The position numbers and the translations under genes were made by a program. This document shows positions 8,346 through 63,445 of a stretch of 64,000 nucleotides of DNA, piece after piece. The first letter of the stretch is position 1. Each line of letters starts with the position of its first letter. Where the stretch lies: the NCBI GenBank assembly GCA_030674475.1, contig JAUSCZ010000035.1, forward strand, positions 74,682-138,681. Reading direction: 5' to 3'. The notes under the pieces are model-generated. The model saw only the letters and a list, made by a program, of their open reading frames with translations, had not been told where the DNA came from and ran no database searches. The DNA comes from Candidatus Omnitrophota bacterium. GTDB lineage: Bacteria; Omnitrophota; Gorgyraeia; Gygaellales; UBA12090.

Positions 8346-8435
8346 GGACCCTCGCTCCGCTCGGGAGTAGCCAGAGGCCAGTTGCCAGAGGCCAGATTTT
8401 TTTCTGGCTTCTGGCTTCTGGTTTCTGGTTACTAC
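8346..8435. repeat. 5'-UTR heptamer-repeat element: CCCTCGCTCCGCTCGGGAG-CCAGAGGCCAGTTGCCAGAGGCCAG-T7-CTGGCTTCTGGCTTCTGGTTTCTGGTTACT (copy 1 of 3)
   Basis: Near-identical to 58158-58243 and partially to 56055-56089. Lies immediately 5' of the rnfE ATG. The CCAGAGG and CTGGYTT arms can pair through G-U wobbles. Confidence 0.7.
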
Positions 8436-16219: not shown

Positions 16220-17864
16220 AAGTATATTTTTCGGTTTTCGCGTCCTTCCAGGAGTCAGCAGGCAAGCCTGCCTTATGAGCGCATAAATTAGAAAGGAACT
16301 CCTCCTTATTCCAGCCGGTCTCTTCAGCCACCTGAGGCAAAAATACCCCCTGGCTCCACCCCCGTTTGATCAACAAACCGTGCGTGCCTAACTGAAACTC
16401 AGCCACATCATCAATCTTTTTTAAAGGCGAGAGGACCGAAATTTCAATCTCAATATCCTTAAGCTCATCCTTGGTTACCGGCTCAAACCGGGGATCTCCG
16501 GTTGCCGACTCTATGGCCATATCCCTGATGGTTTCAAAAAGAGGCTTCTGGCCGATAATATTACCGATACAGCCTTTTAGCTTACCTTGCTTATGGATAG
16601 TTACAAAGGCACCGTTAATAGCCTTTAGCTGAGGATCATCTTCGCTAAAATCTAATTTTTTCCCGCTGGTTACATATTCCTGAATAGTCTTACGGGCAAT
16701 CTCCAGTAATCGCGCTTTCTGCGTATCATTCAACATAACTGTTTCTCCTGTCTTATCCTTATTAATTAAAGCTGATAAATACCCCACAGTCCACACCCCT
16801 TTTATCTTTTTACCGGAAACCTTAGCGGAATTAGTATGCCCCAAAAACTTTATTTGATTATAGCCTAAGCTTTGCGCGGTAAGTATCGCGCTGACCACCG
16901 GCAATCCCCCGCACATCTGGATTGAACCGTCTTTTAACTTCGCGTAAATATCCTGGGCAGACCCCGTTAGAAGCCTCTTACCGCTTTCAGATTGCTCCCC
17001 AGCTTCTAACGGGGCAGGCATCTTCCCTAAATAGGACAAAGTCAGCTTATCTACTCTCTCGGTTTCCTGGTAGTCATAACTGTGGCAAAGGTCCGTGGAA
17101 GCAATCAGCAACACATCTGAACGGCCCGCGATGGCTTTATTTAATATATCCGCCAAAACATTTAAACCGTGAAGGTCCGCGTCTCCAATCAAAATGGGAA
17201 CTATCTTAAAATCATCCAGGGTCTTTTGTAAGAAAGGAAGCTGAACCTCAATGGAATGTTCTTTTTCAAAAGCCTGAGGGATAAAGCTAATATTTTGGGA
17301 AGGAGAAATTATTTTTTGCGTAAAATCAGAGTCTACTTCTAGGTCTCCCAGGGGGGTTTGGAACTTACCGGATGGATATACTGAGACTCCCTTAAAATAA
17401 TACTGGTGACTGGGCCCCAGGAGGACCACGGTTTTATAAGGACGGCCTTTAATTAACTTATAGCCCAAGGCGGCGGTCGGCCCGGAGAAATCATAGCCGG
17501 CATGGGGAGAAATCAAACAAAATATTTCGCCTGTGGTGAGCGGTGGGTTGGCCGCGTTAAGCAGGTTTTCAACTTTATGGCTAAGCTCATCTTTATCCGC
17601 GGGATAAAACTGCCCGGCCACATTCGGTTTTTTTATCTCCTCGCCAAAGCTTAGGACATTAAAGCCAAAAAGCGCTCCCCCAAAAAAAAGGAAAAAAACA
17701 ATTGCTGTCCCTACTTTTCTCTTTGAAAAAAAGGAACTTCCCCCTTTCGTAAAGGGGGATGGAGGGGGATTTTCTAGGTTAGGGGAAATTTGGGAGCATT
17801 TACACAATGCACTAAGCCCAGATTCCGGCGATTGTTTCCTGACAAAACTTGCAATGCCCATCAA
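16185..17864 (-). CDS. AmmeMemoRadiSam system fusion protein: Memo1-like (protein B) plus AMMECR1 (protein A) domains, with N-terminal hydrophobic segment; start codon uncertain
   Basis: The Memo-like core is ISPHAGYDFSG...LCHSYDY. The AMMECR1 core is GAFVTIHKQGKLKGCIGNI...DPRF. A radical SAM partner is adjacent. Confidence 0.7.
   Translation of the reverse strand: MMGIASFVRKQSPESGLSALCKCSQISPNLENPPPSPFTKGGSSFFSKRKVGTAIVFFLFFGGALFGFNVLSFGEEIKKPNVAGQFYPADKDELSHKVENLLNAANPPLTTGEIFCLISPHAGYDFSGPTAALGYKLIKGRPYKTVVLLGPSHQYYFKGVSVYPSGKFQTPLGDLEVDSDFTQKIISPSQNISFIPQAFEKEHSIEVQLPFLQKTLDDFKIVPILIGDADLHGLNVLADILNKAIAGRSDVLLIASTDLCHSYDYQETERVDKLTLSYLGKMPAPLEAGEQSESGKRLLTGSAQDIYAKLKDGSIQMCGGLPVVSAILTAQSLGYNQIKFLGHTNSAKVSGKKIKGVWTVGYLSALINKDKTGETVMLNDTQKARLLEIARKTIQEYVTSGKKLDFSEDDPQLKAINGAFVTIHKQGKLKGCIGNIIGQKPLFETIRDMAIESATGDPRFEPVTKDELKDIEIEISVLSPLKKIDDVAEFQLGTHGLLIKRGWSQGVFLPQVAEETGWNKEEFLSNLCAHKAGLPADSWKDAKTEKYTFSALVFSEKKQ
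16961..17019. repeat. in-frame intragenic palindromic element, family B copy 1 (ACCCCGTTAGAAGCCTCTT...CTTCTAACGGGGCAGGC)
   Basis: About 85% identical to 35410-35470. Encodes MPAPLEAGEQSESGKRLLTGS in the middle of the Memo-AMMECR1 protein. Confidence 0.75.
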
Positions 17865-18954
17865 TAAGATTATTTACGGTAACACTATAGCCGACCCTGA
17901 CCAATAAGGCCTGAGCGCATTTTGGGCAAAAGGTGGTCTCGCCCTGATGTCCGGGGACATTCCCGATATAGGCGTATTTAAGGCCGGCCTTCTTAGCCAA
18001 GCTTTGAGCTTTCTCTAAAGTTGCCACTGGGGTCGGGGCTAAATTCGCCAGCTTATACATCGGCCAAAAGCGGGAAAAATGTATTGGCGTGTCCGGACCC
18101 AAGTTATCCCTTATCCATACGCACATCTCCTCCATCTCTTCTGAAGAATCATTTAACCCGGGTAAAACCAGATTAGTCAGTTCTAAGTGCACCTTTTCTT
18201 CTTTGATTATCTTTAAGGTTTGGAGGATATTCTCTAAATTTCCAAAACAAATATCTTCATAGTATTTCTGGCGGAAGGCCTTTAAGTCAATGTTAGCCGC
18301 GTCCAAATGTTTACAGAGATTGCGCAGGGGCTCTTCATTGATGAAGCCGGCGGAATGCATTATATTCTTAAGGCCGCTTGAGCGGGCCAAGGCCGCGGTA
18401 TCCAGCATATACTCATAAAAAATAGTCGGCTCGGTATAGGTATAGGCGACAGTCTGGGAGCCGGACTCTTTGGCCTGTTTAACTATATCTTGCGAACTAA
18501 GAAAAACCGGCTGAACATCCTCGGGCTTGCTTTGAGAAATCTCCCAGTTCTGGCAGAATTTGCACCTTAAATTACATCCGGCGGTGGCGATGGAAAATGC
18601 GGATGTCGCGGGAAGAAAATGAAAAAGCGGCTTTTTCTCTATCGGGTCAATATGCACTGCCGCCGCCTGAGAATGCACCAGGGTATATAAAACCCCCTGA
18701 TTATTTTCCCTCACCCCGCAAAAGCCTCTCTGCTTCTCAGTTATCAGGCATTTACGCGGACAAAGCTGACATTGCAGAGACTTTTCGTCTATGGGCTTCC
18801 AATATAAAGCCTTACTTTTATCTAAAGAGGCCCAAGCCGATTGAATCTTATCCGCGCCCAAACCCAAAAGGCCCATTCCCCCGCTTATCACAACCACCTG
18901 TTTTAAAAAATCTTTTCTGGTCATCATAATCGTTTTGGGGTCAGACCTCAACAA
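17812..18954 (-). CDS. AmmeMemoRadiSam system radical SAM enzyme with Tat-like N-terminal signal peptide
   Basis: CPRKC...C and CNLRCKFCQNWEIS clusters. The N-terminus MMTRKDFLKQVVVISGGMGLLGLGA...AWA resembles a twin-arginine signal (RK variant). Confidence 0.7.
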   Translation of the reverse strand: MLRSDPKTIMMTRKDFLKQVVVISGGMGLLGLGADKIQSAWASLDKSKALYWKPIDEKSLQCQLCPRKCLITEKQRGFCGVRENNQGVLYTLVHSQAAAVHIDPIEKKPLFHFLPATSAFSIATAGCNLRCKFCQNWEISQSKPEDVQPVFLSSQDIVKQAKESGSQTVAYTYTEPTIFYEYMLDTAALARSSGLKNIMHSAGFINEEPLRNLCKHLDAANIDLKAFRQKYYEDICFGNLENILQTLKIIKEEKVHLELTNLVLPGLNDSSEEMEEMCVWIRDNLGPDTPIHFSRFWPMYKLANLAPTPVATLEKAQSLAKKAGLKYAYIGNVPGHQGETTFCPKCAQALLVRVGYSVTVNNLIDGHCKFCQETIAGIWA

Positions 18955-19005
18955 TAGAAACTAACTTCTAAGGTTGAGGTCTACTAACTTCTAAGGTTGA
19001 GGTCT
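18935..19005. terminator. 16-bp inverted repeat GGGGTCAGACCTCAAC ... GTTGAGGTCTGACCCC enclosing a 20-nt direct duplication
   Basis: Read from the sequence; lies downstream of the pilin gene at 19040-19495. Confidence 0.6.
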
Positions 19006-28641: not shown

Positions 28642-28758
28642 AATCTGCCTCTGGCGCTTAGATTTTACTTGATTCTGAGCTCTGCGAAGAATCTTAAGGA
28701 ACAATCTGCCTCTGGCGCTTAGATTTTACTTGATTCTGAGCTCTGCGAAGAATCTTAA
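28642..28758. repeat. two tandem 61-bp direct repeats (AATCTGCCTCTGGCGCTTAGATTTTACTTGATTCTGAGCTCTGCGAAGAATCTTAA...), motif AGATTTTACTTG present 3 times
   Basis: Read from the sequence. Lies upstream of the excisionase-like gene, so these are candidate operator/iteron sites or a small RNA. Confidence 0.7.
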
Positions 28759-35473: not shown

Positions 35474-36091
35474 TTTCACTTGCAAATCTCCTTATAAGTG
35501 CGATAAATCGCACCGCTACGCAACATGAGATAAATCGCCTACCTGCGGTAAGCAGGCACCGCTACGCGACATGAGTGACCCACGGTAGGCGGAGGTAAAA
35601 CCCGCGCCCTTATCACTCCCAAGGAGCAACTGCATCTCAGAGTATCGGTATAACCAACTCAAGAACAGACTTTTAAAAACTCCTGCTATAATAAAAAACC
35701 AAGCTCTACTTTTTAAGGGTAGCTTGGCTTCGCACTCTAAGAATAAAACCGAGTGCTCTTTTCTTGTTTGAGCTTAACAACTTGGCTTTATTCTGGTTTT
35801 AAAGTTAAGTTGTCGGTGCGCCAGGCTACCTTATCCAGAGGGCTTTCCCCTCCTTTACTTCTGGTAAGACTTAGGTCCTTTAGCTTTGCGCCCCGCGGTT
35901 TCCCGCGGTTTGCCCCGGCCTTAATTTCCTGTGCCGGCCTACCGGTTTCCTGTTTGCGCGGTAGATTTTCGGATGTGGTAATTAAAGTATACACCATAAA
36001 AGAACTAATTACAAGGGTAAAACCGCCTTTTCAGGAAAGCGCTTTCTTGGGAGGAATTTTATCGGTTGAACTCTTTGGTTATCGCTTAGCT

Positions 36092-36949
36092 TTACCTTTC
36101 CCGCAGGAAATTCTCCTTTATGAAATCAATCAGGTATTCGTAAAGCGGCTGGGAGGTTTTTATAAATCCCTCTATCTGCTGCCAGCGGATATCCAGATAT
36201 TCATGGGTAATCATATTCCTTAACCCCGCGAACCTGCCCAGCTTCTCGGCAGTGTTTTTATCAAAATCTTTCAGCAAAGACAGCGATTTCAGGATCTCTT
36301 TATATTTCTCCGGCAGGCGGATTTTCTCTGAGGCCAGAACAATCTCGGCGATGTCAATCGAACAAAGCGCGATGCCTTCCGCCCAATGCTCAACATTTCT
36401 TTTTTTGCCGCGATCAGACTCATAAAGGGATTGATTAAGCTCCCGGAATTCCTCGTAAGATTTTAATTCTTCTTCCAGGAAATCAATCAAAACCTCCAAC
36501 TGTTCTTTATCTTCCAGGCTTAATGATTTTGACCTTTCCCGAATCCGCCTATAGTCTTGAATAAATTCTTTAAAATCCGCGGACGCGGAATTAATGGTTA
36601 GGAAGAATCGCCAATACAGGGAACGGTCTTTTATAAATATGGGCAGGCCGGTCTTTAGAACCTTGGAAGCCATCGTGCTTGCTGCCCGGTTTAAAACCAG
36701 AAGGTCAACTTCTCTATCCAGAAGATTTTCCAGTTCCCGCCATATCCGGTCTTCTTCGGGATAAAAGGTGTCTTCTTCCCATTCAAGAGCCCTGCCCGCC
36801 GGATTAAAATAAACCGCGATATCCATATCAGAATCCGGCAGGTGCTGGCCTTTGGCAAAAGAGCCGAAAATAAAGGCCATAGAGATATTTTTTTGGTTTT
36901 TGAAATACTCTTTTAACTCTTGGATCTTGACCTTTACCGGCGTTATCAT
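36092..36949 (-). CDS. nucleotidyltransferase (MNT, Pol-beta superfamily) fused to HEPN (DUF86-like) domain
   Basis: N-terminal GSFAKG...DSDMDIAV nucleotidyltransferase motif, with a C-terminal RNMITHEY (Rx4H HEPN motif). Confidence 0.65.
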   Translation of the reverse strand: MITPVKVKIQELKEYFKNQKNISMAFIFGSFAKGQHLPDSDMDIAVYFNPAGRALEWEEDTFYPEEDRIWRELENLLDREVDLLVLNRAASTMASKVLKTGLPIFIKDRSLYWRFFLTINSASADFKEFIQDYRRIRERSKSLSLEDKEQLEVLIDFLEEELKSYEEFRELNQSLYESDRGKKRNVEHWAEGIALCSIDIAEIVLASEKIRLPEKYKEILKSLSLLKDFDKNTAEKLGRFAGLRNMITHEYLDIRWQQIEGFIKTSQPLYEYLIDFIKENFLRER

Positions 36950-38499: not shown

Positions 38500-38640
38500 C
38501 CAACAAGTTATTAAACTCTAAATCCTAAATTCTAAACTCGAAACCCTAAACAAATCCCAAACCCAAAACATTATATTTTTAGTTTTGAGTTTATGATTTT
38601 GCCTGCCTGCCGGCAGGCAGGAGTTTGTTTAGGATTTAGG
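38500..38640. terminator. large inverted-repeat region (CTAAATCCTAAA... / ...TTTAGGATTTAGGG arms around the perfect palindrome GCCTGCCTGCCGGCAGGCAGG)
   Basis: Read from the sequence; lies downstream of the TPR gene stop. Confidence 0.55.
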
Positions 38641-41077
38641 GTTTAGGATTTAGGGTTTTTTGTATTTCCAGGAGCCTCTCCTGGGCGAATTTAGACTCTT
38701 CAACATCAAGGCTGACTATTTTTTCATACATCTCAACTGCCTTCTGAATATCTTCTTTGTCCTCATAAATCTTGCCCGCGCGCAGTAAACCTTTTACCAA
38801 TATATCCTTATCGGCTTCGGAGCTGATAGCGCGATATTCCAGGACCGCTTCGTCCAATAAACCCGCCTCTTCCAAACATTCCGCCAGGCCAAACCGCGCC
38901 TGAGCCTTGTTTTCAGAACCGCCTTCCTGAAGAACCTTCCGGTAGTAAGAGGCCGCGTCTAGAAAATTACCCGAAGATTTATAGATATCGGCTATCTTAG
39001 GATACACCTTTTGCTTATCGCGCTCTATCTTTTTAAACGCCTCCAGGGCTTCTTCGTAGCGGCCGTCCTTCTCGAAAGCCCGGCCCAATAAATAATACGC
39101 ATCGTCCCGCGCTAAAGGATCCTGCCCGCTCTGAATAATATCTAACAGATAGCGCCGGGATAAGTCAAGCTTATTTTCCTGGAAATAATGTTCGGCCAGG
39201 CGCCAGAGAACCGCGGATGAAACCTCAGAACTGCTGTATTTAGAGCGCAGATACTCCAGCTTGCTTAAGGCCTCCTCAATCCGGCCCAGAGAATACAAAC
39301 AGTCCGCCATCTCAAACTCCGCCCTGGCCGATAGCTTCGCGTCTTGAGCGTCCAGCTTAGCCGCCTGCTTAAAAATCTCGTAAGCATCCTGAAACCGGCC
39401 CAAGGATTTAAGGCTTAACCCCTGAAAGTTAAGCGCCCGGGCCTTATGGGCACTCCGGGGATAACGGGTTACAAAACTTCTCAACTGCATATAGCTGTTT
39501 AGAAAATCACCCTGTTCGTAATAAGCCGTTCCCAAATAAAAGTTGATTGTCTCTCTCGCTGGCGATTCGGAATATTTAGCTATTGCCGATTTTAAAACTT
39601 CTATTGCCCGGCCGTATTCCCGGGATTTCAATAAAGCTAAACCCAAACCGCTATAGACATAGCCGCAATTCGCGCAATCAGGATAGTCTTTCAAAATACC
39701 CTCGTAAATACCAATGGCCTTCTTGTTATCCCCTGATTCCAGGAAAACCTCGGCCATTTCAGTCAGCGCCGAAACCTTAAGGCTATCATCCTTGGAATTC
39801 TGGGCCAATAAAGAGAATTCTTTTAAGGCCTGGCCAGTATTTCCCGACTTTAAGTAACTTAGGCCCAGACCATAACTTATCCTATCCGAAAATGAACCGC
39901 TCACCTCAGGATTGATTCGGCCCTCTGCCTCTTTATACGCCGAGATTGATTGAGAATAGTCTCCTTGATTGTAAAGCGCCTCGGCTTTTCCTATATACGC
40001 CTCTAAGACAATAGCGGCATCCTTAGAGCGGCTGATAAGCTTATCATAGTTTTCTATGGCTTCAGGAAACTTTAAGCTCATCCCCAGGGCCAAGGCCCGG
40101 CCTAAAAGCGCGTTTTCAAAATAACCGCCGCTTTCGGCAGAAAGAGGTTTATCAAAATTCATCAGCGCCGAGGCATAATCCCCTGATTTCAAATAACTCC
40201 ATCCCAAGCCTAAATAAACCGGGTTCTTGAAATCGTCATCACTATCCTGAGCCAAGGCCTGTATATAGTTATCTATAGCATAAGGATAGTCTTTTAAATA
40301 AAAACCGCTTTCGGCTAAATAAAATTTAATTAATCTTTTCCCGGACGCGTCCGAAAGAACCTCCGGAATATTCCCGGATTGAGCCGAATTTGGCCTTAAA
40401 TAATAGTTCTTTTCCAGATATTCAGCGTAACTTTTAAGCTGAGAGTAATCCTTTAAGCTGTAAAGACATTCGGCAATCTTATAATCCGCCTCTCTTACCA
40501 GAAGATTCCCGGGAAACTTATCCTTGAAAGCGCTGAATTTATCCTGCGCCTCTTTAAATTTACCCTGTTCAAATAAACACCAGCCCAGGGAATAATAGGC
40601 CTGAGCCAAATAAGCTGAATCCAGACACTCCAGGGTTAACTTTTCATAAAAATTTAACGCCGAAGGCATATCCTGGCTTCTAAGATAACTCTCGGCCAGC
40701 CAATAATAAATTTTATCCTTAGATACTGCCGCATCCTTTAAATTTATGGTTCGACCGCGCGGTTCACCATCAAGCAGACGATTAAATTGTTCTATTGCCG
40801 GAGCGTATTTTTTCTGATTAAAATAACACCTGCCAATATATAAATCCGCTTCCGGTGAAAGCGCGCTTTGGGGAAATCGCGAGATAAATTTATTTAAAAG
40901 GTTAAGGCTGGTATCGTAAAAACCATTCTCGAAAGCGCCCACAGCCAAAGAAAGCTCTTCTTGTTCTTTTTTGTCAGAATCCGTCTCCTGGGCACGCGCG
41001 GCAGAGAACGAAAAACAAATAACGGAAAGTAGAAGAAAAGATAAAATTAATATTTTTGACTTTTTATTTTTCAACAT
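38636..41077 (-). CDS. secreted tetratricopeptide-repeat (TPR) protein, 813 aa
   Basis: Signal peptide followed by more than 15 TPR-like helical repeats (recurrent A..Y/F..G.Y..A patterns). Confidence 0.7.
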   Translation of the reverse strand: MLKNKKSKILILSFLLLSVICFSFSAARAQETDSDKKEQEELSLAVGAFENGFYDTSLNLLNKFISRFPQSALSPEADLYIGRCYFNQKKYAPAIEQFNRLLDGEPRGRTINLKDAAVSKDKIYYWLAESYLRSQDMPSALNFYEKLTLECLDSAYLAQAYYSLGWCLFEQGKFKEAQDKFSAFKDKFPGNLLVREADYKIAECLYSLKDYSQLKSYAEYLEKNYYLRPNSAQSGNIPEVLSDASGKRLIKFYLAESGFYLKDYPYAIDNYIQALAQDSDDDFKNPVYLGLGWSYLKSGDYASALMNFDKPLSAESGGYFENALLGRALALGMSLKFPEAIENYDKLISRSKDAAIVLEAYIGKAEALYNQGDYSQSISAYKEAEGRINPEVSGSFSDRISYGLGLSYLKSGNTGQALKEFSLLAQNSKDDSLKVSALTEMAEVFLESGDNKKAIGIYEGILKDYPDCANCGYVYSGLGLALLKSREYGRAIEVLKSAIAKYSESPARETINFYLGTAYYEQGDFLNSYMQLRSFVTRYPRSAHKARALNFQGLSLKSLGRFQDAYEIFKQAAKLDAQDAKLSARAEFEMADCLYSLGRIEEALSKLEYLRSKYSSSEVSSAVLWRLAEHYFQENKLDLSRRYLLDIIQSGQDPLARDDAYYLLGRAFEKDGRYEEALEAFKKIERDKQKVYPKIADIYKSSGNFLDAASYYRKVLQEGGSENKAQARFGLAECLEEAGLLDEAVLEYRAISSEADKDILVKGLLRAGKIYEDKEDIQKAVEMYEKIVSLDVEESKFAQERLLEIQKTLNPKP

Positions 41078-45538: not shown

Positions 45539-46354
45539 TTAGGTTCCTATTTTTATCGGGTTAAAAATATCCTTTAACACCGCGATTGCCGATAAAACCG
45601 CCAAATAGCTTGTTTTAGGATTATCCGGACAGGGGCTGTTTTCACAACGGATAAAAGTTTTTCCGGCGCTGGATTCAATTTCTATCTCGTGAATATTCTT
45701 GGAATAACCCGGCGAACAGAAAATCTTTACCCGGGTTTTTTCTTTGCCTATTCCGGCCAGGCTTAAGAGCGCGGCCACATTTATGTTCTGAGGAAAAAAG
45801 GTAACTGCCTTTTGAGCGCTTCCTTCAAAAATCATGGTCTCCTCTTTTATGTTATCCAGATCTATCTTTTTTTGAATTACATAAGGCGCGCCGGAAAGTG
45901 CCTGAGGGGATTTACGGGTTATCAAAATTACCCTCTTGATATTAGCTAATTTATGCGCCTTTAAGGCATCTATCCCGGCAATGGCCCCGGAAGGCACATA
46001 TACGGAACAGTTTTTTTCCCTGGCTAAGTCAAATATATCCTCGGCCCCAAGTAACCCCCCCACACTCATTATCAGACAATCGCGCCGGTTTCTAAGCGCC
46101 TCGCGGGCGATATCCGCCGCGGCCCCGGCTGATGAGGCCTCAACCACAAGGTCAGACCTTCTGATTAGCCGCGCTAAACTCAAAACAATTATGTTTTTCT
46201 TTCTTAATTTACCGGCTAAATCCCGCGCCTTGGCTGAGTCAATATCATACAGCGCGCTTAACTTAGCCTTATCTTTTAAATCAGAGCTTATGGCTTCGGC
46301 AATCTTTGAACCTATGGCCCCACAGCCAACTATCCCGATTCTTTTAAGCTTCAT
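45539..46354 (-). CDS. L-aspartate dehydrogenase-like (NadX / DUF108 family) NAD(P)-binding protein
   Basis: IGIVGCGAIG Rossmann motif, and a central segment ...MSVGGL...VYVPSGAIAGIDALKA... that fits the NadX family. Confidence 0.5.
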   Translation of the reverse strand: MKLKRIGIVGCGAIGSKIAEAISSDLKDKAKLSALYDIDSAKARDLAGKLRKKNIIVLSLARLIRRSDLVVEASSAGAAADIAREALRNRRDCLIMSVGGLLGAEDIFDLAREKNCSVYVPSGAIAGIDALKAHKLANIKRVILITRKSPQALSGAPYVIQKKIDLDNIKEETMIFEGSAQKAVTFFPQNINVAALLSLAGIGKEKTRVKIFCSPGYSKNIHEIEIESSAGKTFIRCENSPCPDNPKTSYLAVLSAIAVLKDIFNPIKIGT

Positions 46355-46356
46355 CT

Positions 46357-47628
46357 TTAGCCAACAATAATGTTGTCAATGAGCCTGGTCTTTCCGAAGT
46401 ATACCGCTAAGGCAATTAAGGCCTTTTGCTTAACATATTCCAACGGTTCCAATGTTTCAACATCCGCGATTGCCGTATAATCAATTCTGGCTGATTTCTT
46501 CCGGCTGATTTCATTTCTCATCGCGGCGATTATTTTCCCGGCTTTTCTCTCTCCCCCAAAAATTATCTCTTTAGCCTTCTGTAAAGATCGGGACAAAACC
46601 AGGGCGTCGGATCTTTCCTGAGCGCTTAAATAGACATTGCGGGAACTCAAGGCTAAACCGTCGGAATCTCTCACAATCGGCATCACCTTTATTTTTAAAG
46701 GCATATTTAAATCCTTTACCATCTTCTTAATTACCAATGCCTGCTGAAAATCCTTCTGCCCGAAATAGGCAATATCCGGCTGGATGATGTTAAATAACTT
46801 GGCGACCACCGTGGTTACCCCCCTGAAATGTCCGGGCCGGGAAGCGCCGCAAAGATAATCGGTTTTTTTCTCCACGTTCACATAGGTAGAATATCCCAAG
46901 CCATACATATCTTTGGCCTGAGGATAAAATACGCAATCACCTCCGGCAGATTTGGCCAGGATGCTGTCAACTTCTAAATCCCGGGGGTATTTTTTATAAT
47001 CTTCCTGGGGCCCGAATTGAATAGGATTGACAAATATGCTTACTAAGCAAATATCGCAGTCTTTTTTGGCCTGGCGGACTAGAGAAAGATGCCCTGGATG
47101 CAGATAACCCATTGTAGGAACAAAGCCGATAGTTTTACCGCTGGATTTAACCTTGGCGGCATATTTACGCATTGCCTCAATGTGAGAAATAACCTTGGCT
47201 TCTTTAGCTAAGGATTTTATCAGGGAAGGGGCGATTTCTTTTAAAGGCTTAAGAACAAAACTTCTTTCCTTAAGACGAGGATGGGGAATTTTTAAACGGG
47301 GTGAATTTATTTTTTTATTGCCGTAAAACAATATATCCAGGTCAATGGGCCGGCTGGAATTTTTTCTCTCATCTTTCCGGCCTAAGTCCGACTCTAGGAC
47401 TTTTAATTCATTCAAAAGGGACAACGGGGACAAATTCGTCTTTATTTTGGCGGTTAAATTCAGAAAGCGCGGGCTTCCCGGAGGACAATTACACGGATCA
47501 GTTTCGTAAATACCGGATATTCTCACTAATTTAGTGTTTTTTAAACTCCCGATGTGTTGAAGCGCCAATCTTATATTTTGCTGTCTGTCGCCTAAGTTTG
47601 AACCCAACCCAAGATAACAAATAATCAT
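46357..47628 (-). CDS. bifunctional fusion: HPPK (FolK) N-terminal domain plus pantoate--beta-alanine ligase (PanC) C-terminal domain
   Basis: The FolK part is CYLGLGSNLGDR...RPIDLDILFYG. The PanC part is GFVPTMGYLHPGHLSL...GQKDFQQ...LALSSRN. Confidence 0.75.
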   Translation of the reverse strand: MIICYLGLGSNLGDRQQNIRLALQHIGSLKNTKLVRISGIYETDPCNCPPGSPRFLNLTAKIKTNLSPLSLLNELKVLESDLGRKDERKNSSRPIDLDILFYGNKKINSPRLKIPHPRLKERSFVLKPLKEIAPSLIKSLAKEAKVISHIEAMRKYAAKVKSSGKTIGFVPTMGYLHPGHLSLVRQAKKDCDICLVSIFVNPIQFGPQEDYKKYPRDLEVDSILAKSAGGDCVFYPQAKDMYGLGYSTYVNVEKKTDYLCGASRPGHFRGVTTVVAKLFNIIQPDIAYFGQKDFQQALVIKKMVKDLNMPLKIKVMPIVRDSDGLALSSRNVYLSAQERSDALVLSRSLQKAKEIIFGGERKAGKIIAAMRNEISRKKSARIDYTAIADVETLEPLEYVKQKALIALAVYFGKTRLIDNIIVG

Positions 47629-49505: not shown

Positions 49506-49628
49506 CAGTTACTCCAGTTCATTGCTGTCCCAATTAACTGTCCTGCCCGTGAAAACGGGCATCCAGAGATACTTAATCCGACAAGGCTGGATTCCCGCTT
49601 TCGCGGGAATGACACAGTTGACCATTGA

Positions 49629-50504
49629 CTATAATAGCCCGTAATCTTTTAAGGCCTTTCTTAACTTCTCTTGATTTTCAGCCGACAACTCGCACATCGG
49701 AAGCCGTAAATCCGGCTGGCAAAGCTTAAGCAATCCCATCGCTGTTTTCACCGGAATGGGGTTAGTCTCAATAAACATTGCTTTTATCAATGGCAGTAAT
49801 TTATAATGCGATTCTTGAGCTTTTTTTAAATTTCCTTTTTCAAAGGCCTCAATCATATTCGCCACATCCTTGGGCACGATGTTAGCCACAACCGAAATAA
49901 CTCCTGTCCCGCCAATTGCCAATACCGGTAAAGTCAAGGCGTCGTCTCCGGAAATAAGGGCGAATTCCGCCGGGCAAAGCGCTCTGATCTTAGACATCTG
50001 TTCTAAGGAACCGGAGGCCTCTTTCACCCCCACGATATTTTTACAATCCCGGGCTAATTTGGCTATTGTTTCCGGCTCAATATTTACCCCGGTCCGGGAG
50101 GCAATATTATAAAGAATTACCGGTATATCCGCGCACTCAGCTACTGCCTTAAAATGCAGATATAAACCTTTTTGAGTAGGACGGTTATAATAAGGCGAAA
50201 CGTGCAAGGTGGCATCCGCGCCGGATTTAGCCGCCTGTTTAGTCAGCATTACCGCCTCATCGGTAGAATTTGAGCCGGTTCCGGCAATCACCGGGACCCT
50301 TTTCTCCACCGTCTCAATCACCACCTCAATCACCCGCTCATGCTCAGCCCAGGATAAAGTCGCGGATTCACCGGTCGTGCCGCAAGGAACAATGCCGGAA
50401 GTTTTATTTTTAATCTGAAACTCAACCAGCTCTTTTAATTTCTTCTCATCAACCTTACCGTTCTTAAAAGGAGTAACCATCGCCACCATTGAGCCCTTAA
50501 ACAT
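49629..50504 (-). CDS. dapA: 4-hydroxy-tetrahydrodipicolinate synthase (ORF track extends to 50525; start likely MFKGSMVAMVTPF)
   Basis: Classic DapA N-terminus with the GTTGE motif. Confidence 0.85.
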   Translation of the reverse strand: MFKGSMVAMVTPFKNGKVDEKKLKELVEFQIKNKTSGIVPCGTTGESATLSWAEHERVIEVVIETVEKRVPVIAGTGSNSTDEAVMLTKQAAKSGADATLHVSPYYNRPTQKGLYLHFKAVAECADIPVILYNIASRTGVNIEPETIAKLARDCKNIVGVKEASGSLEQMSKIRALCPAEFALISGDDALTLPVLAIGGTGVISVVANIVPKDVANMIEAFEKGNLKKAQESHYKLLPLIKAMFIETNPIPVKTAMGLLKLCQPDLRLPMCELSAENQEKLRKALKDYGLL

Positions 50505-51312
50505 AATATTCCCCCCCATACACAATTCTCACCTTGCCCTCCAGCCAGACATCGCTTATTCTGTCGGCTTCTTTATTGAAACATACCTTTAAAGTCTCCC
50601 CGCCTTGAGTAATAACATTAATTATCTCACGAATACCAGAGGATGGAGATTGAAGGCTAAAGATTATCGCCGAGGCGACAGATCCGGTTCCGCAGGCCAG
50701 GGTTTCCCCCTCAACTCCGCGTTCATAGGTGCGCAAGCGGATAGTATCTTTATCTACGACTTCCACAAAGTTTACATTGGCGCCTTCGGGCGCGAAATTC
50801 TTGTGATAACGGACTGCCCTGCCGATTTCGGCGGCATTGATTTTATTTATCCCCGCGACAAATATCACCGCGTGCGGCACACCGGTATTGATGAAATTCA
50901 CTTTTAATTCGCGGTTATTTATTTTTATACTCAAATCCGGCCGGTAATTCTCGGGCTTCGTCAGCTTTATCTTCGCCTTTTCACCTTTCACTTCTGCTTC
51001 AATTATCCCTGCTTTCGTTTCTATTCTTAACCTGGAGCCTGGAGACCGGAGACCGGAGCGTGCATAAAAAGCGACGCAACGCGCCCCGTTCCCGCACATT
51101 TGTGCCTCAGTACCATCCGCGTTAAAGACGCGCATTCGGACATCGGCGATTTTTGACTTCTCTAAAACCAACAATCCATCCGCTCCCGCGCCAAACTTCC
51201 GGTCGCAAATTTTTTTCGCTAAATTTATTAATTCCGCGTTCTTAGCTCTTAGTTCTGTAATTATGAAGTCATTTCCTGAAGCGACAATTTTCGTAAATTT
51301 TATTTTTTTCAT
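50497..51312 (-). CDS. dapF: diaminopimelate epimerase
   Basis: ASGNDFI and GNGARC motifs. The CDS carries an internal heptamer-repeat tract at 51031-51059. Confidence 0.85.
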   Translation of the reverse strand: MKKIKFTKIVASGNDFIITELRAKNAELINLAKKICDRKFGAGADGLLVLEKSKIADVRMRVFNADGTEAQMCGNGARCVAFYARSGLRSPGSRLRIETKAGIIEAEVKGEKAKIKLTKPENYRPDLSIKINNRELKVNFINTGVPHAVIFVAGINKINAAEIGRAVRYHKNFAPEGANVNFVEVVDKDTIRLRTYERGVEGETLACGTGSVASAIIFSLQSPSSGIREIINVITQGGETLKVCFNKEADRISDVWLEGKVRIVYGGEYYV

Positions 51313-51322
51313 TTTCGCGGTG

Positions 51323-52602
51323 TTATCTCAAAAAATCCGGAATAACATCTTTTTTCACTAAATCCAGGTAGCTGTCGCGCTTACGCGTGGTATAAAATTT
51401 ATTCCCTTTAACCATTATCTCGGCTGGCTTCAGACGGCAGTTATAATTGGAAGCCATGGAAAATCCGTAAGAACCGGCGCTCATCACCGCCAGGTAATCG
51501 CCTTCATTAAGCTCAGGCATTTGCCTGTCCTTAGCCAGGAAGTCCCCGGATTCGCATATCGGGCCCACCACGTCAAACCTTTCCGCTTTCCGCTTTCCCT
51601 GCCTGCTCGTCCGGCAGGCGCTTTCTGCAAAGGCAAAATATCGTGATGCGCGCCATAGAGAGACGGCCGGATTAAATCATTCATCCCGGCATCCACGATT
51701 ATAAAATTCTTCAGCGGAGTTTTCTTGATATAAAGAATTTTGGCAACCAGTATACCGGAAGGACCCACTATGAACCTCCCCGGCTCTAAGATAATTTTCA
51801 ATCCGGTGCTTTTCAATAAAGGAAGTATTTTCCCGGCGAATTCTTCGGCAGTCTGGGGCTTCTCATTATTATAAATAATGCCTAATCCGCCGCCAATATT
51901 AAGATATTGAATATCTATCGCTTCTTCTTTCAGTCTTTTGATAAATTTTATCATCTTCTTGATGGCCAAAATATAAGGAGCGCCGTCAATTATCTGAGAG
52001 CCTATATGCATATGCAGGCCGCTAAACTTTAAATGAACGAATTCAGCCCGGTTTTTAAAAATGTTATAAGCGGTATCTAAATCAATGCCAAACTTGTTGG
52101 TGAGCTTGCCGGTAGTTATGTAGCTGTGGGTTTTGGGCTCAACATCGGGATTTATCCTTAAAGCGACTGAGGCGTTCACCCCCAAATCGCACGCCACCCT
52201 ATTAATCAGCTCTAATTCCGACAGCGACTCCACGTTGAAAAAGAGTATCTGTTTGGCGATTGCCTGGCGGATTTCCTCTTCGGTTTTTCCCACTGACGCG
52301 TAGACTATTTTCTTTGGGTCACAGCCGACCAGAAGCGCCTTATACAACTCGCCTCCGGAGACAATATCCAAGCCCGAGCCCGCCTTTACCAGCGCCCGCA
52401 GAATAGCCAGATTAGAGTTTGCCTTCATTGAGTAGCAGATAACCGGACTTAATGCCCTAAAGGCCGCGGCTAATTTACGATAATGGCTCAAAAGGGTATT
52501 ATAACTATAAAGATAAAATGGGGTAGAAACCTTATCCGCGATATCGGCTATCTTTACCGCCTCGCAATAAAGCTCATTGTTTTTATATTTAAAGTCGTGC
52601 AT
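51323..52602 (-). pseudogene. lysA: diaminopimelate decarboxylase (lysA) split by a single frameshift into 372-aa and 82-aa ORFs
   Basis: The upstream ORF carries the LysA core as far as YGAHHDILPL; the downstream ORF carries DVVGPICESGDFL and the C-terminus. The shift lies within or next to the tandem CTTTCCG repeats at 51579-51600. Confidence 0.75.
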
Positions 52603-52616
52603 TTTCTCTTGGGCAA

Positions 52617-53930
52617 TTATCCAAAAATTTCTTTTATTATTTTGTGATTCAGGTGCGCGGAAAATGTATTCAACAAGCTGTCTTCCATATCCTTTATCTT
52701 ACATTTATTATCTTCAGCATAGCGGATCACTTTCCCAATAATCTCGTGGGCCTGGGCAAAAGGGATTTTCTTCTCTTTTACCAGATATTCCGCCAGATCA
52801 ACGGTATACAAACTTTCATCTTCTAGCGCCTTTTCTATAACTTTCTCGTTAAGTTTTATTCCTTTTATAAACCGGGCCAGGATTTTAAGCTCGTCCTTAA
52901 TAATATCCACCGAAGAAAATAAAGGCTCTTTATCTAACTGCATATCCCGGTTATAGGTTAAAGGCAGGCCCTTCATTATGGTTAACAAAGCCATAAGGTT
53001 ACCGTAAATCCTTCCGGTATAGCCCCTGACCAATTCCAGGAAATCCGGGTTTTTCTTATGCGGCATAAGACTGCTTCCGGTGCAAAATTCCTCCGGCAAA
53101 TCCACGAAATTAAACTCTTGGGTGGAAAACAGTATCATATCCTCAGCAAAACGGGATAGATGCATCTGCAATATAGAAAGAATACTCAAGAACTCAACAA
53201 TAAAATCCCGGTCGCTTACATGCTCAAGAGGATTTTCCACAGTTTGCAGCTTAATTGTTTCATCTAGAGCGAGTTTTTTAATAATTCCCTGTAAGGCGTT
53301 ATCATAATGTTTAGTTAAAATTGTTCCTTTAAAAGCTCCTGAACCAAGGCTTGCGACAATTTTATTACTAAAATCATCACATCTTTTCCGGTCTCTTTCA
53401 AAAATACAGACAAAAGAACCTAAGTAATCCTTGAAGTCAACTTTCTGGGCCCTTTGGGTGTGGGTATAGCCCACAATAGAAAAACCAATGTATCGTCTAC
53501 TTAATTCTAAAAATGATTTTATGACTTCTAAAATTAATTTTTCAATTTCTAATGATTGTTTTCGGCAATAAAATTTCTCATCAAAGGCAATCTGGTCATT
53601 TCTTGAGCGCAAGGTATGCAGTTTATCGGCTAACTTTCCCACTTTTTTTTCAACCCGATTTTGAATTTCCGTATGTATGTCTTCGGATTGTAAGTTTGGC
53701 TTAAATTTATTTTCTTTTATTTCTGTATATATTTCTTGTAAAGCAAAATGCAATTTCTTCTCTTCCTTAGGGGTTAAAATGCCGGCATCTTTTAATGCTA
53801 ATATATGTATCTGAGAGTGCGTAACATCATAAAGGGCGAGCCTATAGTCATACTGTATAGATTTCTGGAACTCAAAGAAATCTATATCAATTTCTTTCTT
53901 AAACCTTCCGCCCCACAATTTCTTGGCCAT
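52617..53930 (-). CDS. argH: argininosuccinate lyase (ORF track extends to 54026; start at 53930 MAKKLWGGRF)
   Basis: KLWGGRF and HTLRSRNDQIAFD (fumarate lyase signature region). Confidence 0.85.
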   Translation of the reverse strand: MAKKLWGGRFKKEIDIDFFEFQKSIQYDYRLALYDVTHSQIHILALKDAGILTPKEEKKLHFALQEIYTEIKENKFKPNLQSEDIHTEIQNRVEKKVGKLADKLHTLRSRNDQIAFDEKFYCRKQSLEIEKLILEVIKSFLELSRRYIGFSIVGYTHTQRAQKVDFKDYLGSFVCIFERDRKRCDDFSNKIVASLGSGAFKGTILTKHYDNALQGIIKKLALDETIKLQTVENPLEHVSDRDFIVEFLSILSILQMHLSRFAEDMILFSTQEFNFVDLPEEFCTGSSLMPHKKNPDFLELVRGYTGRIYGNLMALLTIMKGLPLTYNRDMQLDKEPLFSSVDIIKDELKILARFIKGIKLNEKVIEKALEDESLYTVDLAEYLVKEKKIPFAQAHEIIGKVIRYAEDNKCKIKDMEDSLLNTFSAHLNHKIIKEIFG

Positions 53931-53940
53931 TTTCTTCTCT

Positions 53941-55137
53941 CTATTTTTTACTTTTGATTTTTGATTTTTGATTTTCAAACGGCATCCCAAAAATCCGGAT
54001 AAACCCTTCGGAAAGTTTCTGGTCAAATTTGTCTTTCGCGGTATAGGTGGCTAATTCTTCCCGGTAGAGCGAACGCGGCGATTTTCTGCCCACCACACTG
54101 CAATTTCCCTTATACAACTTAAGCCTTACCGTGCCGCTGACTGTTTTTTGGGTTTCTTCAATAAACTTATCCAGGGCTGTCCTTAATTTGGAATACCACA
54201 GGCCGTAATAAATAAGCTCCGCGTATTTAAGGGCCACGGTTTCTTTGTAATGGCAGGTTTCCCGGTCCAGAACTAAAGCCTCTAATTCCCGGTGGGCGAT
54301 ATGCAGAATAGTCCCGGCCGGGGCCTCATAAATCTCCCGGGATTTTATCCCTACCAGCCGGTTTTCCATCATATCACTTCTGCCGATACCGTGGATTGAG
54401 CCTAGATTACACAGTTTATCAATCAATTCAAGAGGAGAACAACTCTTTCCGTTTATCTTTTTAGGGATTCCTCTTTCGAATTCTATCTCTACGTATACGG
54501 GCTTATTCGGGGCTTCTTCCGGCGAATTGGTCCACTGATAACAATCCTCCGGCGGACTTACCCAGGGGTCTTCTAAAACCCCGGATTCTATGGAAACCCC
54601 CCATAAATTCTTGTCTAAGCTGTAAGACTTTTTCTTGGTAACATCAATGGGAATTCTTTTGGCCTTAGCGTATTCTATCTCTTCTTCCCGGGATTTAAAC
54701 TCCCAAATTCTTACCGGGGCGATAATTTCTAACTCAGGGTCAAGAATCCTGGAGGTAACCTCAAAGCGCACCTGGTCATTGCCTTTTCCGGTACAACCAT
54801 GGGCAATCGCGGCGGCCTTTTCCTTATGCGCCACCTCAACCAGATATTTGGCAATCAAAGGCCTGCCCAGCGCGGTAGCCAGGAGATATTTACCTTCATA
54901 AACCGCGTCTGCTTTTAAGGAAGGGAAAATAAAATCCTCAACAAATTCTTTTCTTAGGTCTTGGATATAAACCTTGGAAGCCCCTCCTAAAAGGGCGCGT
55001 TTTTCTATCTTTATAAAATCCTCGCCCTGTCCTAAGTCGGCAATAAAACAGATAACCTCATAACCCTTATCCTTAAGCCAATGCACCGCGCAAGAGGTAT
55101 CTAAACCGCCTGAATATGCCAATACCACCTTTTTCAT
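53941..55137 (-). CDS. argG: argininosuccinate synthase
   Basis: AYSGGLDTS PP-loop. Confidence 0.9.
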   Translation of the reverse strand: MKKVVLAYSGGLDTSCAVHWLKDKGYEVICFIADLGQGEDFIKIEKRALLGGASKVYIQDLRKEFVEDFIFPSLKADAVYEGKYLLATALGRPLIAKYLVEVAHKEKAAAIAHGCTGKGNDQVRFEVTSRILDPELEIIAPVRIWEFKSREEEIEYAKAKRIPIDVTKKKSYSLDKNLWGVSIESGVLEDPWVSPPEDCYQWTNSPEEAPNKPVYVEIEFERGIPKKINGKSCSPLELIDKLCNLGSIHGIGRSDMMENRLVGIKSREIYEAPAGTILHIAHRELEALVLDRETCHYKETVALKYAELIYYGLWYSKLRTALDKFIEETQKTVSGTVRLKLYKGNCSVVGRKSPRSLYREELATYTAKDKFDQKLSEGFIRIFGMPFENQKSKIKSKK

Positions 55138-56054: not shown

Positions 56055-56068
56055 TCTCTGGTTGCTGG

Positions 56069-57256
56069 TTACTGGTTTCTGGTTACTACAGTCAACACCA
56101 TATCCAATATCCCCACTGCCTTATCAATCTGCTTGCAAGTTACATTTAAGGCCGGCATCAGCCTTAAGACCGTTTCGTGAGTGCAGTTAATCAATAAACC
56201 TCTTTTAATACACTCCTCGACTACCGGCTTCCCTGCCGTATTCAGTTCAATGCCAATCATCAACCCCAGGCCGCGGACTTCTTTGATTATAGAATATTTC
56301 TTAGCCAACTCTGATAATCTCTTTTTTAAATATTCCCCCATTTCCCGGGCATTGGCAATCAGCTTTTCTTTACGCAGGGCCTTAAATACCCCTAAAGAGG
56401 CCCTACAGACCAGAGGGCTCCCTCCAAAGGTAGAGGCATGTCTTCCCGGGCCCAGGATATCAGCAATTTCTTTTCTCGCCACCATTGCTCCGATAGGTAA
56501 ACCCCCTCCCAGGGCCTTGGCTAAGGTCATTATATCCGGAGTGATTCCGTAGTGCTGATACGCGAACATCTTGGCAGTCCGGCCTAGGCCGGTCTGGACC
56601 TCATCCGCGATCAAAAGTATCTTTTTCTCATCGCAAAGCTTTCTTAAATATAAGACAAAATCCTGATCGGCAACATTTATCCCTCCTTCGCCCTGCACCA
56701 GCTCAATAATAATTCCCGCGGTTTTATCCGATAGCGCGTTTTTCAAGGCATCCCTGTCATTATAGGCAACGCTTTTAAAACCCTCAGGAAGCGGTTCGAA
56801 GCCCTCTTGATATTTGCTCTGACCGGTCATAGTCAGGGACGCCAGGGTCCTGCCGTGAAAGGAATTCTCAAATGAGATTATCTCATATCTGCCCGCGCCA
56901 TACGCCCGGGTGAGCTTTACCGCGGCCTCATTGGCCTCAGCCCCGGAATTGGCAAAAAACACCTTACCGGGAAAGGAGTGATAAATTATTTCTTTGGCTA
57001 ATTTTGCCTGGGGAATAGACAGGTAATTGTTAGGCAGATGAATCAGCTTATCTATCTGGTCCCGGACCGCCGAGACCACATCCGGATGGCAATGCCCCAA
57101 AGAACTCACCCCCCAGCCGGGAAAGAAATCCAGGTATTCCTTGCCGTCAACATCAATAACCTTCATCCCCTTTCCTTTGACAAAAATCAAAGGTATCCGG
57201 GTATAGGTAGGCATGATGTAATCCTGATAGGCCTGAAAGATTTCTTGCTTCTTCAT
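56069..57256 (-). CDS. argD: acetylornithine aminotransferase (class III)
   Basis: Class III PLP-aminotransferase signature (...ADEVQTGLGRTA...). Confidence 0.85.
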   Translation of the reverse strand: MKKQEIFQAYQDYIMPTYTRIPLIFVKGKGMKVIDVDGKEYLDFFPGWGVSSLGHCHPDVVSAVRDQIDKLIHLPNNYLSIPQAKLAKEIIYHSFPGKVFFANSGAEANEAAVKLTRAYGAGRYEIISFENSFHGRTLASLTMTGQSKYQEGFEPLPEGFKSVAYNDRDALKNALSDKTAGIIIELVQGEGGINVADQDFVLYLRKLCDEKKILLIADEVQTGLGRTAKMFAYQHYGITPDIMTLAKALGGGLPIGAMVARKEIADILGPGRHASTFGGSPLVCRASLGVFKALRKEKLIANAREMGEYLKKRLSELAKKYSIIKEVRGLGLMIGIELNTAGKPVVEECIKRGLLINCTHETVLRLMPALNVTCKQIDKAVGILDMVLTVVTRNQ

Positions 57257-58157: not shown

Positions 58158-58243
58158 GTGCCCTCGCTCCGCTCGGGAGAAACCAGAGGCCAGTTGCCAG
58201 AGACCAGATTTTTCTGGTTACTGGTTACTGGTTTCTGGTTACT
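58158..58243. repeat. 5'-UTR heptamer-repeat element copy 2 (same as 8346-8435), immediately upstream of argB ATG
   Basis: CCCTCGCTCCGCTCGGGAGAAACCAGAGGCCAGTTGCCAGAGACCAGATTTTTCTGGTTACTGGTTACTGGTTTCTGGTTACT. Confidence 0.75.
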
Positions 58244-63303: not shown

Positions 63304-63370
63304 AGATTAAACTATATTGGAGAATGATAATGTTGTCAAATAGTTTTTGTGTATCTATAAGGTATTCAAT

Positions 63371-63445
63371 TTGTTATGTAAAGCGTCTTCTTAAAACTTT
63401 AAAAATTTGTTATGTAAAGCGTCTTCTTAAACTTTTAAATTTTAA
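63371..63445. repeat. tandem direct repeat (AATTTGTTATGTAAAGCGTCTTCTTAAAACTTTAAA x2) upstream of the transposase gene
   Basis: Read from the sequence. Confidence 0.7.

Follow-up and report, generated by a model that had tools for sequence, protein, structure and literature searches.

Rickettsia palindromic elements (RPEs), found in obligate intracellular alphaproteobacteria, are ~100-150 bp in length, lie in frame in permissive surface regions of housekeeping proteins, where they are translated, and are not known to accompany heptamer arrays. Gain or loss of units in a coding simple sequence repeat (SSR), which switches the reading frame, is well known (PMC3315296). Heptameric SSRs are in excess in many bacteria, and the arrays of Calothrix, Nostoc and Xanthomonas lie mainly in intergenic DNA, with polymerase slippage as the proposed cause (PMC4692102, which cites a Calothrix report and a 2007 survey). 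The small dispersed repeats (SDRs) of Nostocaceae are described as ~20-nt elements that are possibly mobile (PMC5861425, PMC2884548). Here, we describe a locus with features of each of these systems: the lysA gene of a Candidatus Omnitrophota bacterium, encoding diaminopimelate decarboxylase, in a 64,000-nt stretch of contig JAUSCZ010000035.1 (hereafter the window). The gene lies on the minus strand at 51323-52602 and changes frame within a tandem heptamer (coding GGAAAGC; plus strand CTTTCCG, 51579-51598). Replication slippage probably gave rise to this recent and reversible null allele, which would coexist with an intact one. In itself, the break is a commonplace SSR length variant or, with lower probability, a slip of assembly, and its setting is an unusual coding-sequence version of the known repeat systems.

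Anatomy of the frame break in lysA

The window LysA fits the domain plan of a diaminopimelate decarboxylase, a fold-type III pyridoxal phosphate (PLP) enzyme, in that the PF02784 barrel and the PF00278 sheet domain are both present. The open reading frame (ORF) at 51484-52602 (minus strand, 372 aa) carries the complete PLP-binding barrel Orn_Arg_deC_N (PF02784, E 6e-61), and PF00278 (Orn_DAP_Arg_deC) is divided, with profile positions 5-53 on this ORF and 62-95 on a second ORF at 51323-51571 (minus strand). The gene is 1280 nt long in the window; the intact allele described below has 1287 nt (428 codons and a stop codon), and its best match among solved structures is the diaminopimelate decarboxylase 2p3e (E 4e-116). 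The upstream frame ends ...YGAHHDILPLQKAPAGRAGRESGKRKG and the second reads ...FDVVGPICESGDFL, one base further on than the YGAHHDILPL frame, in which the coding strand runs TAT GGC GCG CAT CAC GAT ATT TTG CCT TTG CAG AAA GCG CCT GCC GGA CGA GCA GGC AGG GAA AGC GGA AAG CGG AAA GGT TTG ACG TGG. Relative to the upstream frame the downstream one is -1, the sequence being 1 nt short modulo 3. Residues 1 to ~341, which span the PLP barrel, the first part of the C-terminal domain and the greater part of the loop, are encoded in the native frame at 51578-52602 (minus strand), which then continues through out-of-frame codons up to a TGA at 51484-51486. The 3' part in the -1 frame (51323-51577, minus strand) reads FDVVGPICESGD ... 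SAGSYGFSMASNYN ... stop and contains residues that are invariant among relatives. Consequently, the window holds no single continuous ORF with the invariant GPxCESxD and GAYG motifs, which lie in the -1 frame past the break, whereas the intact allele does.

Tandem Repeats Finder (TRF) reports CTTTCCG x2.9 at 51579-51598 with 100% matches, that is, GGAAAGC GGAAAGC GGAAAG(G) on the minus strand, three distal units where the intact allele has four. By chance, a perfect 20-nt period-7 run is expected ~0.001 times per 64 kb (0.253^13 x 64000). Adjoining the array is a palindrome at 51598-51618 with a 6-bp stem, made up of the inverted repeats CCTGCC/GGCAGG (51598-51603 / 51613-51618) and GCCTGC/GCAGGC. 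This 21-nt element (coding CCTGCCGGACGAGCAGGCAGG, translated PAGRAGR) is an in-frame insert that splits the second heptamer unit (CG|insert|GAAAG), and upstream of it stand the proximal unit and the CG opening the interrupted unit (51619-51626, minus strand; coding AGAAAGCG). The spacing of the direct repeat D1 is 28 nt, or 7 + 21. An earlier sequence-only reading had placed the break at a tandem heptamer beside a palindrome, a description that TRF, the inverted repeats and the split Pfam domain bear out. It had left the shift as "-1/+1"; the change of frame is real and is precisely -1. It had also seen no large insertion, which needs correcting for the 21-nt palindromic insert that distinguishes this lysA from 96-97%-identical relatives, although the insert is not the cause of the break.

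An otherwise identical contig carries the intact allele

The DapF protein encoded beside lysA is found with identical sequence on one other public contig, the Logan contig SRR13727527_193921 (L001). A blastn alignment of L001 with window positions 49588-54305 covers 4,725 nt with 0 mismatches and a single 7-nt gap, and pairwise alignment places this gap in the repeat, where the palindrome is followed by four units in L001 (GGAAAGC GGAAAGC GGAAAGC GGAAAGG) and by three in the window. On the coding strand the 3-unit allele reads GCAGGCAGGGAAAGCGGAAAGCGGAAAGGTTTGACG and the 4-unit allele GCAGGCAGGGAAAGCGGAAAGCGGAAAGCGGAAAGGTTTGACG. The L001 lysA is one ORF (L001:1704-2990) of 428 aa. Because a second SRR13727527 contig encodes an ArgJ identical to that of the window, L001 can be taken as the same strain assembled independently. 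The slipped-strand origin raised by the sequence-only reading thus finds direct support in an otherwise identical contig with one extra heptamer. That reading had further held that reads supporting a single-base correction restoring one ORF of ~420 aa would overturn it; what was found comes close, with an intact ORF of 428 aa, but the repair is 7 nt and comes from an independent assembly rather than from reads.

Comparison with relatives places the 4-unit form as the functional one. From CCT TTG to TTT GAC, the loop measures 50 nt in the window, 57 nt in L001 and 36 nt in the 96%-identical relative L082; these three lengths imply that the gene is in frame only with 1, 4 or 7 distal units, and the window's three do not satisfy this. 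A relative at 89% identity (P0016/L163) has the same layout of one unit, insert and four units, so this layout is taken as the ancestral functional state of the sub-lineage. The loop is readable in 111 of the 120 listed LysA homologues and is in frame in all 111. Likewise, every one of the 159 related lysA loci in which the loop was read is in frame. One further locus, L113, was missed by the loop pattern; checked separately, it is intact. P0056, a relative of 345 aa whose sequence stops within the loop, might have been a second natural frameshift, but this reading was rejected because the contig that encodes it (L162) ends in homopolymer junk. A search of genome contigs for lysA relatives gave a best hit of 64% identity among the matches listed, which included neither the window's own genome nor its 96% relatives, and a count of repeat alleles in metagenome contigs, scanned for the exact flanks with a variable gap, returned zero matches.

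A probable slippage-generated null allele

These data are consistent with a simple mutational history. The surface loop of LysA between YGAHHDILPL and FDVVGPICESGD is, in this lineage, a GGAAAGC tandem array with an in-frame 21-nt palindromic insert. The functional allele comprises one unit, the insert and four units (an 84-nt loop in a 428-aa protein); the window lacks one of the four distal units. Since 7 is not a multiple of 3, the reading frame is lost ahead of the invariant GPICESGD and SAGxYG motifs, and the predicted product is a 372-aa protein with a nonsense tail, presumably inactive. Loss of a unit is what slipped-strand mispairing classically produces when a short tandem repeat is replicated, and the palindrome beside the array, which can form a hairpin, may promote such slippage. 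The loss appears recent, because the rest of the sequence is identical to the intact allele, and the null allele should be reversible, because gain of one unit or loss of two restores the frame. The 3-unit form would then be a length variant that occurs alongside the intact allele in a natural population, and we consider it likely that cells carrying it exist. With regard to function, the residues D346, G349, P350, C352, E353, D356, Y381 and G382, which all follow the break, do not vary among 58 relatives. In fold-type III decarboxylases, the active site includes the Cys-Glu of CESGD and the Tyr of GAYG; because these motifs fall past the break, the 372-aa product should be inactive.

Several points weigh against this account. 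No exact match to the 372-aa frameshifted product was found in public assemblies, and the 3-unit allele could be an artefact of consensus calling, polishing or bubble resolution. The inactivity of the truncated LysA is a presumption from what holds for fold-type III decarboxylases in general. Moreover, a tract of only 3-4 units is short compared with classical hypermutable contingency tracts.

Alternative explanations

The most substantial rival is an assembly or consensus artefact, in which the organism has four units and one was dropped by the assembler, by bubble popping in a mixed population or by long-read polishing. Such an origin would fit the in-frame 4-unit version carried by an independent assembly of the same strain, the failure of any other assembly to yield the 3-unit product, and the observation that Logan contigs of this strain break at heptamer arrays, which shows that these arrays disturb assembly. 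Yet the periodic run of 20-27 nt is shorter than the usual final k-mers, and by this reasoning a de Bruijn assembler cannot make a path that is absent from the reads. A noisy long-read consensus is also hard to reconcile with the surrounding genes: 10 ORFs in overlapping same-strand neighbour pairs and 10 further ORFs from the arg-lys-dap cluster all match Pfam domains of their own along nearly the whole profile, with no other split gene among these 20 neighbouring ORFs. The assembly is therefore not riddled with indel errors. Finally, if the assembler followed one path through a genuine bubble, cells of the population do carry the 3-unit allele, which is the slippage account itself. Taken together, we regard a pure artefact as unlikely, although it is the alternative that carries the most weight. 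Adaptive phase variation, with the array acting as a contingency switch of lysine synthesis in a host-dependent or cross-feeding lifestyle, is considerably less probable. On and off length alleles of a coding tandem repeat in otherwise identical genomes are what such a switch would produce, and the switch is reversible in principle; however, lysA is a housekeeping biosynthetic enzyme, its tract has only 3-4 units, no further out-of-frame allele occurs in the 159 related loci, and similar arrays in DapF loops and the ArgG tail are simply translated. The arrays look like tolerated passengers and the off-allele like a mutational cost.

The sequence-only reading had also proposed a programmed frameshift, and the idea that -1 ribosomal frameshifting or other recoding has evolved to produce full-length LysA from a 3-unit template appears very improbable. 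The shift needed is indeed -1, both frames are open across the loop, and GGA AAG in the zero frame, preceded by a C (51586-51591, minus strand), could allow tRNA-Lys to re-pair from AAG to AAA, and a few bases upstream of it lies the purine-rich run AGGGAA. This is the sole weakly slippery -1 site: the zero-frame codons AGG GAA AGC GGA AAG CGG AAA GGT contain no X XXY YYZ site, and only C GGA AAG is partly slippery. A slip there would yield LysA minus two loop residues, and the site could at best give leaky -1 shifting. Neither a homopolymer suited to transcriptional slippage nor a stimulatory RNA structure accompanies it, the minimum free energy of the 121-nt region (-37.2 kcal/mol) being no better than that of shuffled sequence (mean -38.9, z = 0.48). 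The frameshift is also unconserved, as all 111 readable homologue loops and the otherwise identical L001 allele are single-frame. At the break site itself, an Rfam search found nothing, and neither did a promoter and terminator scan of 44-64 kb, in which promoter-like sites (48 versus 38.5 expected) and terminator-like sites (25 versus 24.5) were within ~1.5 standard deviations of chance. Nor do the data support a genuine inactivation in the sense of a loss of the last lysine step that is fixed across the lineage; the break is at most one allele in a polymorphic population.

Heptamer arrays in enzyme loops

The closest LysA relatives carry the names Omnitrophica WOR_2 or Omnitrophota. Among relatives at 96-97% identity (421 aa), the loop RKAESGKRKAES corresponds to (CGGAAAG)x5 translated through all three frames. 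The sub-lineage of the window has the same five-unit array plus the 21-nt in-frame insert after the first unit. Many other Omnitrophota carry LysA loop arrays of different units, including CGCAGGA, CGCAATA, AAAGTCA, GACAAGC, GCCGCAA, CGAGGGA and GGACGAT, among others, and the loop is usually 63 nt long. A lag-7 z-score above 3 in the loop is found in 28% of lysA loci at least 55% identical to that of the window, versus 1% of loci that are more distant (Mann-Whitney p = 2e-4). The solved Aquifex LysA (2p3e) is shorter by 10 residues in this loop, and in an AlphaFold model residues 330-340 have a predicted local distance difference test (pLDDT) score below 50 and lie between two strands. Because of this low pLDDT and the 10 fewer residues in the Aquifex enzyme, the loop is permissive, which fits a tolerance of arbitrary sequence. 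In L165 (L165:913-1200), which on both loop flanks is the same as the window's lineage in a comparison with L166:1737-2024 and L082, the loop itself holds a ~55-nt patch that differs at one base from L166, an 80%-identical lineage sampled in the same ENA project. This L166-like patch suggests that short-patch recombination can move whole heptamer arrays between lineages.

The same holds for DapF. In the window, a heptamer array detected by TRF at 51034-51059 (minus strand; coding CTCCGGT/CTCCAGG) is translated in frame as SGLRSPGSRL in the loop that follows NGARCVAFY. Arrays with units that vary by lineage are also found in dapF of L083, L084, L097, L100, L103, L164 and L090, and the orthologous DapF loop of relatives is encoded by (CGCTCCA)x4, (AGTCTCA)x4, (CTCCAAA)x3 or (AGTACGG)x4. 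DapF has three hypervariable loops, and one unit recurs in two DapF loops of a single genome in L082, L084 and L097. The C-terminal tail of ArgG, NQKSKIKSKK (...FENQKSKIKSKK*), is encoded by a (CAAAAAT) x4.7 array at 53943-53975, which overlaps the region just 5' of the argH start.

Within the window, a survey of tandem repeats with periods of 3-15 found 12 arrays of period 7, four of period 8, one each of periods 6, 9 and 10, and none of the others. Per 100 kb, this corresponds to densities of 18.75 for period 7, 6.25 for period 8 and at most 1.56 for every other period from 3 to 15. Control loci from Syntrophales and Nitrospirota show a similar heptamer-array density, so the heptamer excess is not specific to Omnitrophota. 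A classification of arrays as coding or non-coding by stop-to-stop ORFs was too permissive (ORF cover above 1) and was used for no claim. Inverted heptamer arrays at 8366-8428 (GCCAGAG…TTTTT…TTCTGGC) and 58194-58243 (CCAGAGACCAGA TTTTT CTGGTTACTGGT) form long intergenic hairpins. The arrays at 56058-56087 and 58214-58243 have the unit CTGGTTA in common and run across the stop codon at the 3' end of argD and of argJ. The contig L167, from the strain of the window, is just 1,194 nt long and ends near both argJ ends.

A dispersed palindrome nested in heptamer arrays

The palindromic insert is missing from the 96% relative L082, where its flanks are intact. It stands after unit 1 in L001 and L163, and the 92% relative L164 has CCTGCCTGCCGGAAAGGCAGG after unit 3, both insertions falling at CR|GAAAG. 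As the L164 insert sits at another unit, the two insertions into one array are independent events in sister lineages. At least nine other LysA homologues contain 'LPAGRAG'-type peptides, whose position in the loop varies. L090 has two palindrome inserts in its lysA loop (105 nt) and one of 21 nt in dapF, within the loop after NGARCVAFY.

The window holds two copies, the one in lysA (51598-51618) and a perfect 20-nt copy, CCTGCCTGCCGGCAGGCAGG, at 38602-38621, just downstream of the ORF for a TPR protein (38636-41077), at its 3' end. The latter copy is flanked by two inverted heptamer arrays, of TAAACTC type (38512-38551) and TTTAGGA type (38627-38658), the second of which overlaps the last codons of that ORF. 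Outside lysA, this canonical form is also found in L090, L115, L127, L005/L091 and L164, mostly nested in heptamer arrays. Beyond the window, ~13 more copies with at most two edits occur in L001, L005/L091, L090, L096/L098, L115, L127 and L164, and L163 has a diverged copy. At up to four edits there are 43 matches versus ~12 in shuffled sequence; because this looser threshold also matches shuffled sequence, only close matches (at most two edits) are relied upon. The palindrome thus behaves as a small dispersed repeat with presence/absence polymorphism and independent insertion sites, and from this distribution it may be mobile.

Comparison with described repeat systems

Like SSR contingency loci, the coding repeat of lysA changes by whole units, its frame switches, and the on and off alleles differ nowhere else, as seen in the three versus four units of otherwise identical genomes. 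Recurrent on and off alleles across strains, a second hallmark of such loci, were not seen among the 159 related loci. The lysA array also differs in having a 7-nt unit in 3-4 copies, in lying in a core amino-acid biosynthesis gene rather than a surface or restriction-modification gene, and in itself encoding a structural loop.

The short tandemly repeated repetitive sequences (STRRs) of cyanobacteria resemble the arrays described here in the abundance of heptamer arrays, the period-7 excess (12 in 64 kb), the intergenic hairpins formed by inverted arrays, and the differences in array length and sequence among relatives, which are seen in Omnitrophota as well. In contrast, Omnitrophota arrays are translated in LysA and DapF loops and in the ArgG tail, whereas STRRs and Xanthomonas repeats are described as intergenic (PMC4692102). 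Nor are the arrays confined, as is typical of STRRs, to the intergenic DNA of heterocystous cyanobacteria, since they lie inside lysA and dapF of Omnitrophota and are also frequent in Syntrophales and Nitrospirota.

As judged from secondary descriptions of the SDRs of Nostocaceae, the Omnitrophota palindrome is similar in its length (20-21 nt), its occurrence at several loci and in several genomes, its presence or absence in close relatives (L082 versus L001 and L164) and its varied sites within arrays. It differs in that its sequence is unrelated, its hosts belong to another phylum, and copies lie in frame inside coding loops. SDRs may likewise nest in heptamer repeats. The palindrome further recalls RPEs in being translated in frame in a surface loop of a housekeeping enzyme, but is far smaller than their ~100-150 bp and is tied to heptamer arrays. 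A literature search for Omnitrophota together with tandem repeats gave nothing beyond passing mention of each term. Heptamer arrays that are translated in orthologous enzyme loops and whose units are specific to a lineage, combined with a nested palindrome and the switching off of an essential gene by one unit, appear to be undescribed.

A possible self-propagating repeat system

We tentatively suggest that, in a clade of Omnitrophota, the heptamer arrays and the 20-21-nt palindrome might act as a repeat system that propagates itself and spreads into permissive loops and tails of the essential enzymes LysA, DapF and ArgG. Several features could be accommodated in this way: arrays at orthologous positions keep the loop length and carry lineage-specific units, the same unit recurs within a genome, and arrays may be swapped via ~55-nt recombination patches. 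If such a system exists, the lysA frameshift would be its visible cost, and the system would be a coding-sequence counterpart of cyanobacterial STRRs and SDRs, as well as an undescribed source of loop hypervariation and reversible gene inactivation in an uncultured phylum.

More broadly, 7-base arrays, usually seen as intergenic curiosities, can be translated as enzyme loops, may be exchanged between lineages and can be split by a tiny palindromic insert, and loss of a unit may occasionally knock out an essential gene. The locus offers a concrete, testable model of how repeat dynamics could shape protein loops and give uncultured bacteria null alleles that can revert. It further points to a class of 'pseudogenes' in metagenome-assembled genomes that call for a read-level check. 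Because an identical genome with one more unit has an intact gene, the lysA of the window should not be scored as a lost function or as lysine auxotrophy.

Gene neighbourhood and other features of the window

On the coding strand, lysA is followed downstream by dapF, dapA, dapB and a class I/II aminotransferase and preceded upstream by argJ, argB, argD, argF, argG and argH, and the rest of the pathway is intact. The sequence-only reading had listed intact dapL, dapB, dapA and dapF upstream. Here, dapF, dapA, dapB and the adjacent aminotransferase are indeed intact but lie downstream, and this aminotransferase is a candidate DapL. In the 90-92% relatives (L164:3775-4316, L162:161-704), a DUF4258 gene and a small ORF, possibly a toxin-antitoxin-like pair, lie between argH and lysA. 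The window is without the DUF4258 insertion, and the distance from argH to lysA is 14 nt.

Elsewhere in the window, a c-di-GMP-I riboswitch aptamer (RF01051) at 35812-35924 (minus strand; 47 bits versus a gathering score of 35) lies inside a plus-strand ORF at 35753-36223. Perfect tandem duplications occupy intergenic DNA at 28642-28758 (61 nt x1.9) and 18960-19005 (23 nt x2.0), and a 36-nt x2.1 repeat is found at 63368-63443. A 423-aa ORF at 46357-47628 (minus strand) joins an HPPK domain of the folate pathway to pantoate-beta-alanine ligase (PanC), an unusual fusion that adjoins an aspartate dehydrogenase-like gene at 45539-46354. Finally, a 559-aa ORF at 16185-17864 (minus strand) fuses Memo-like and AMMECR1 domains and adjoins a radical SAM protein at 17812-18954.

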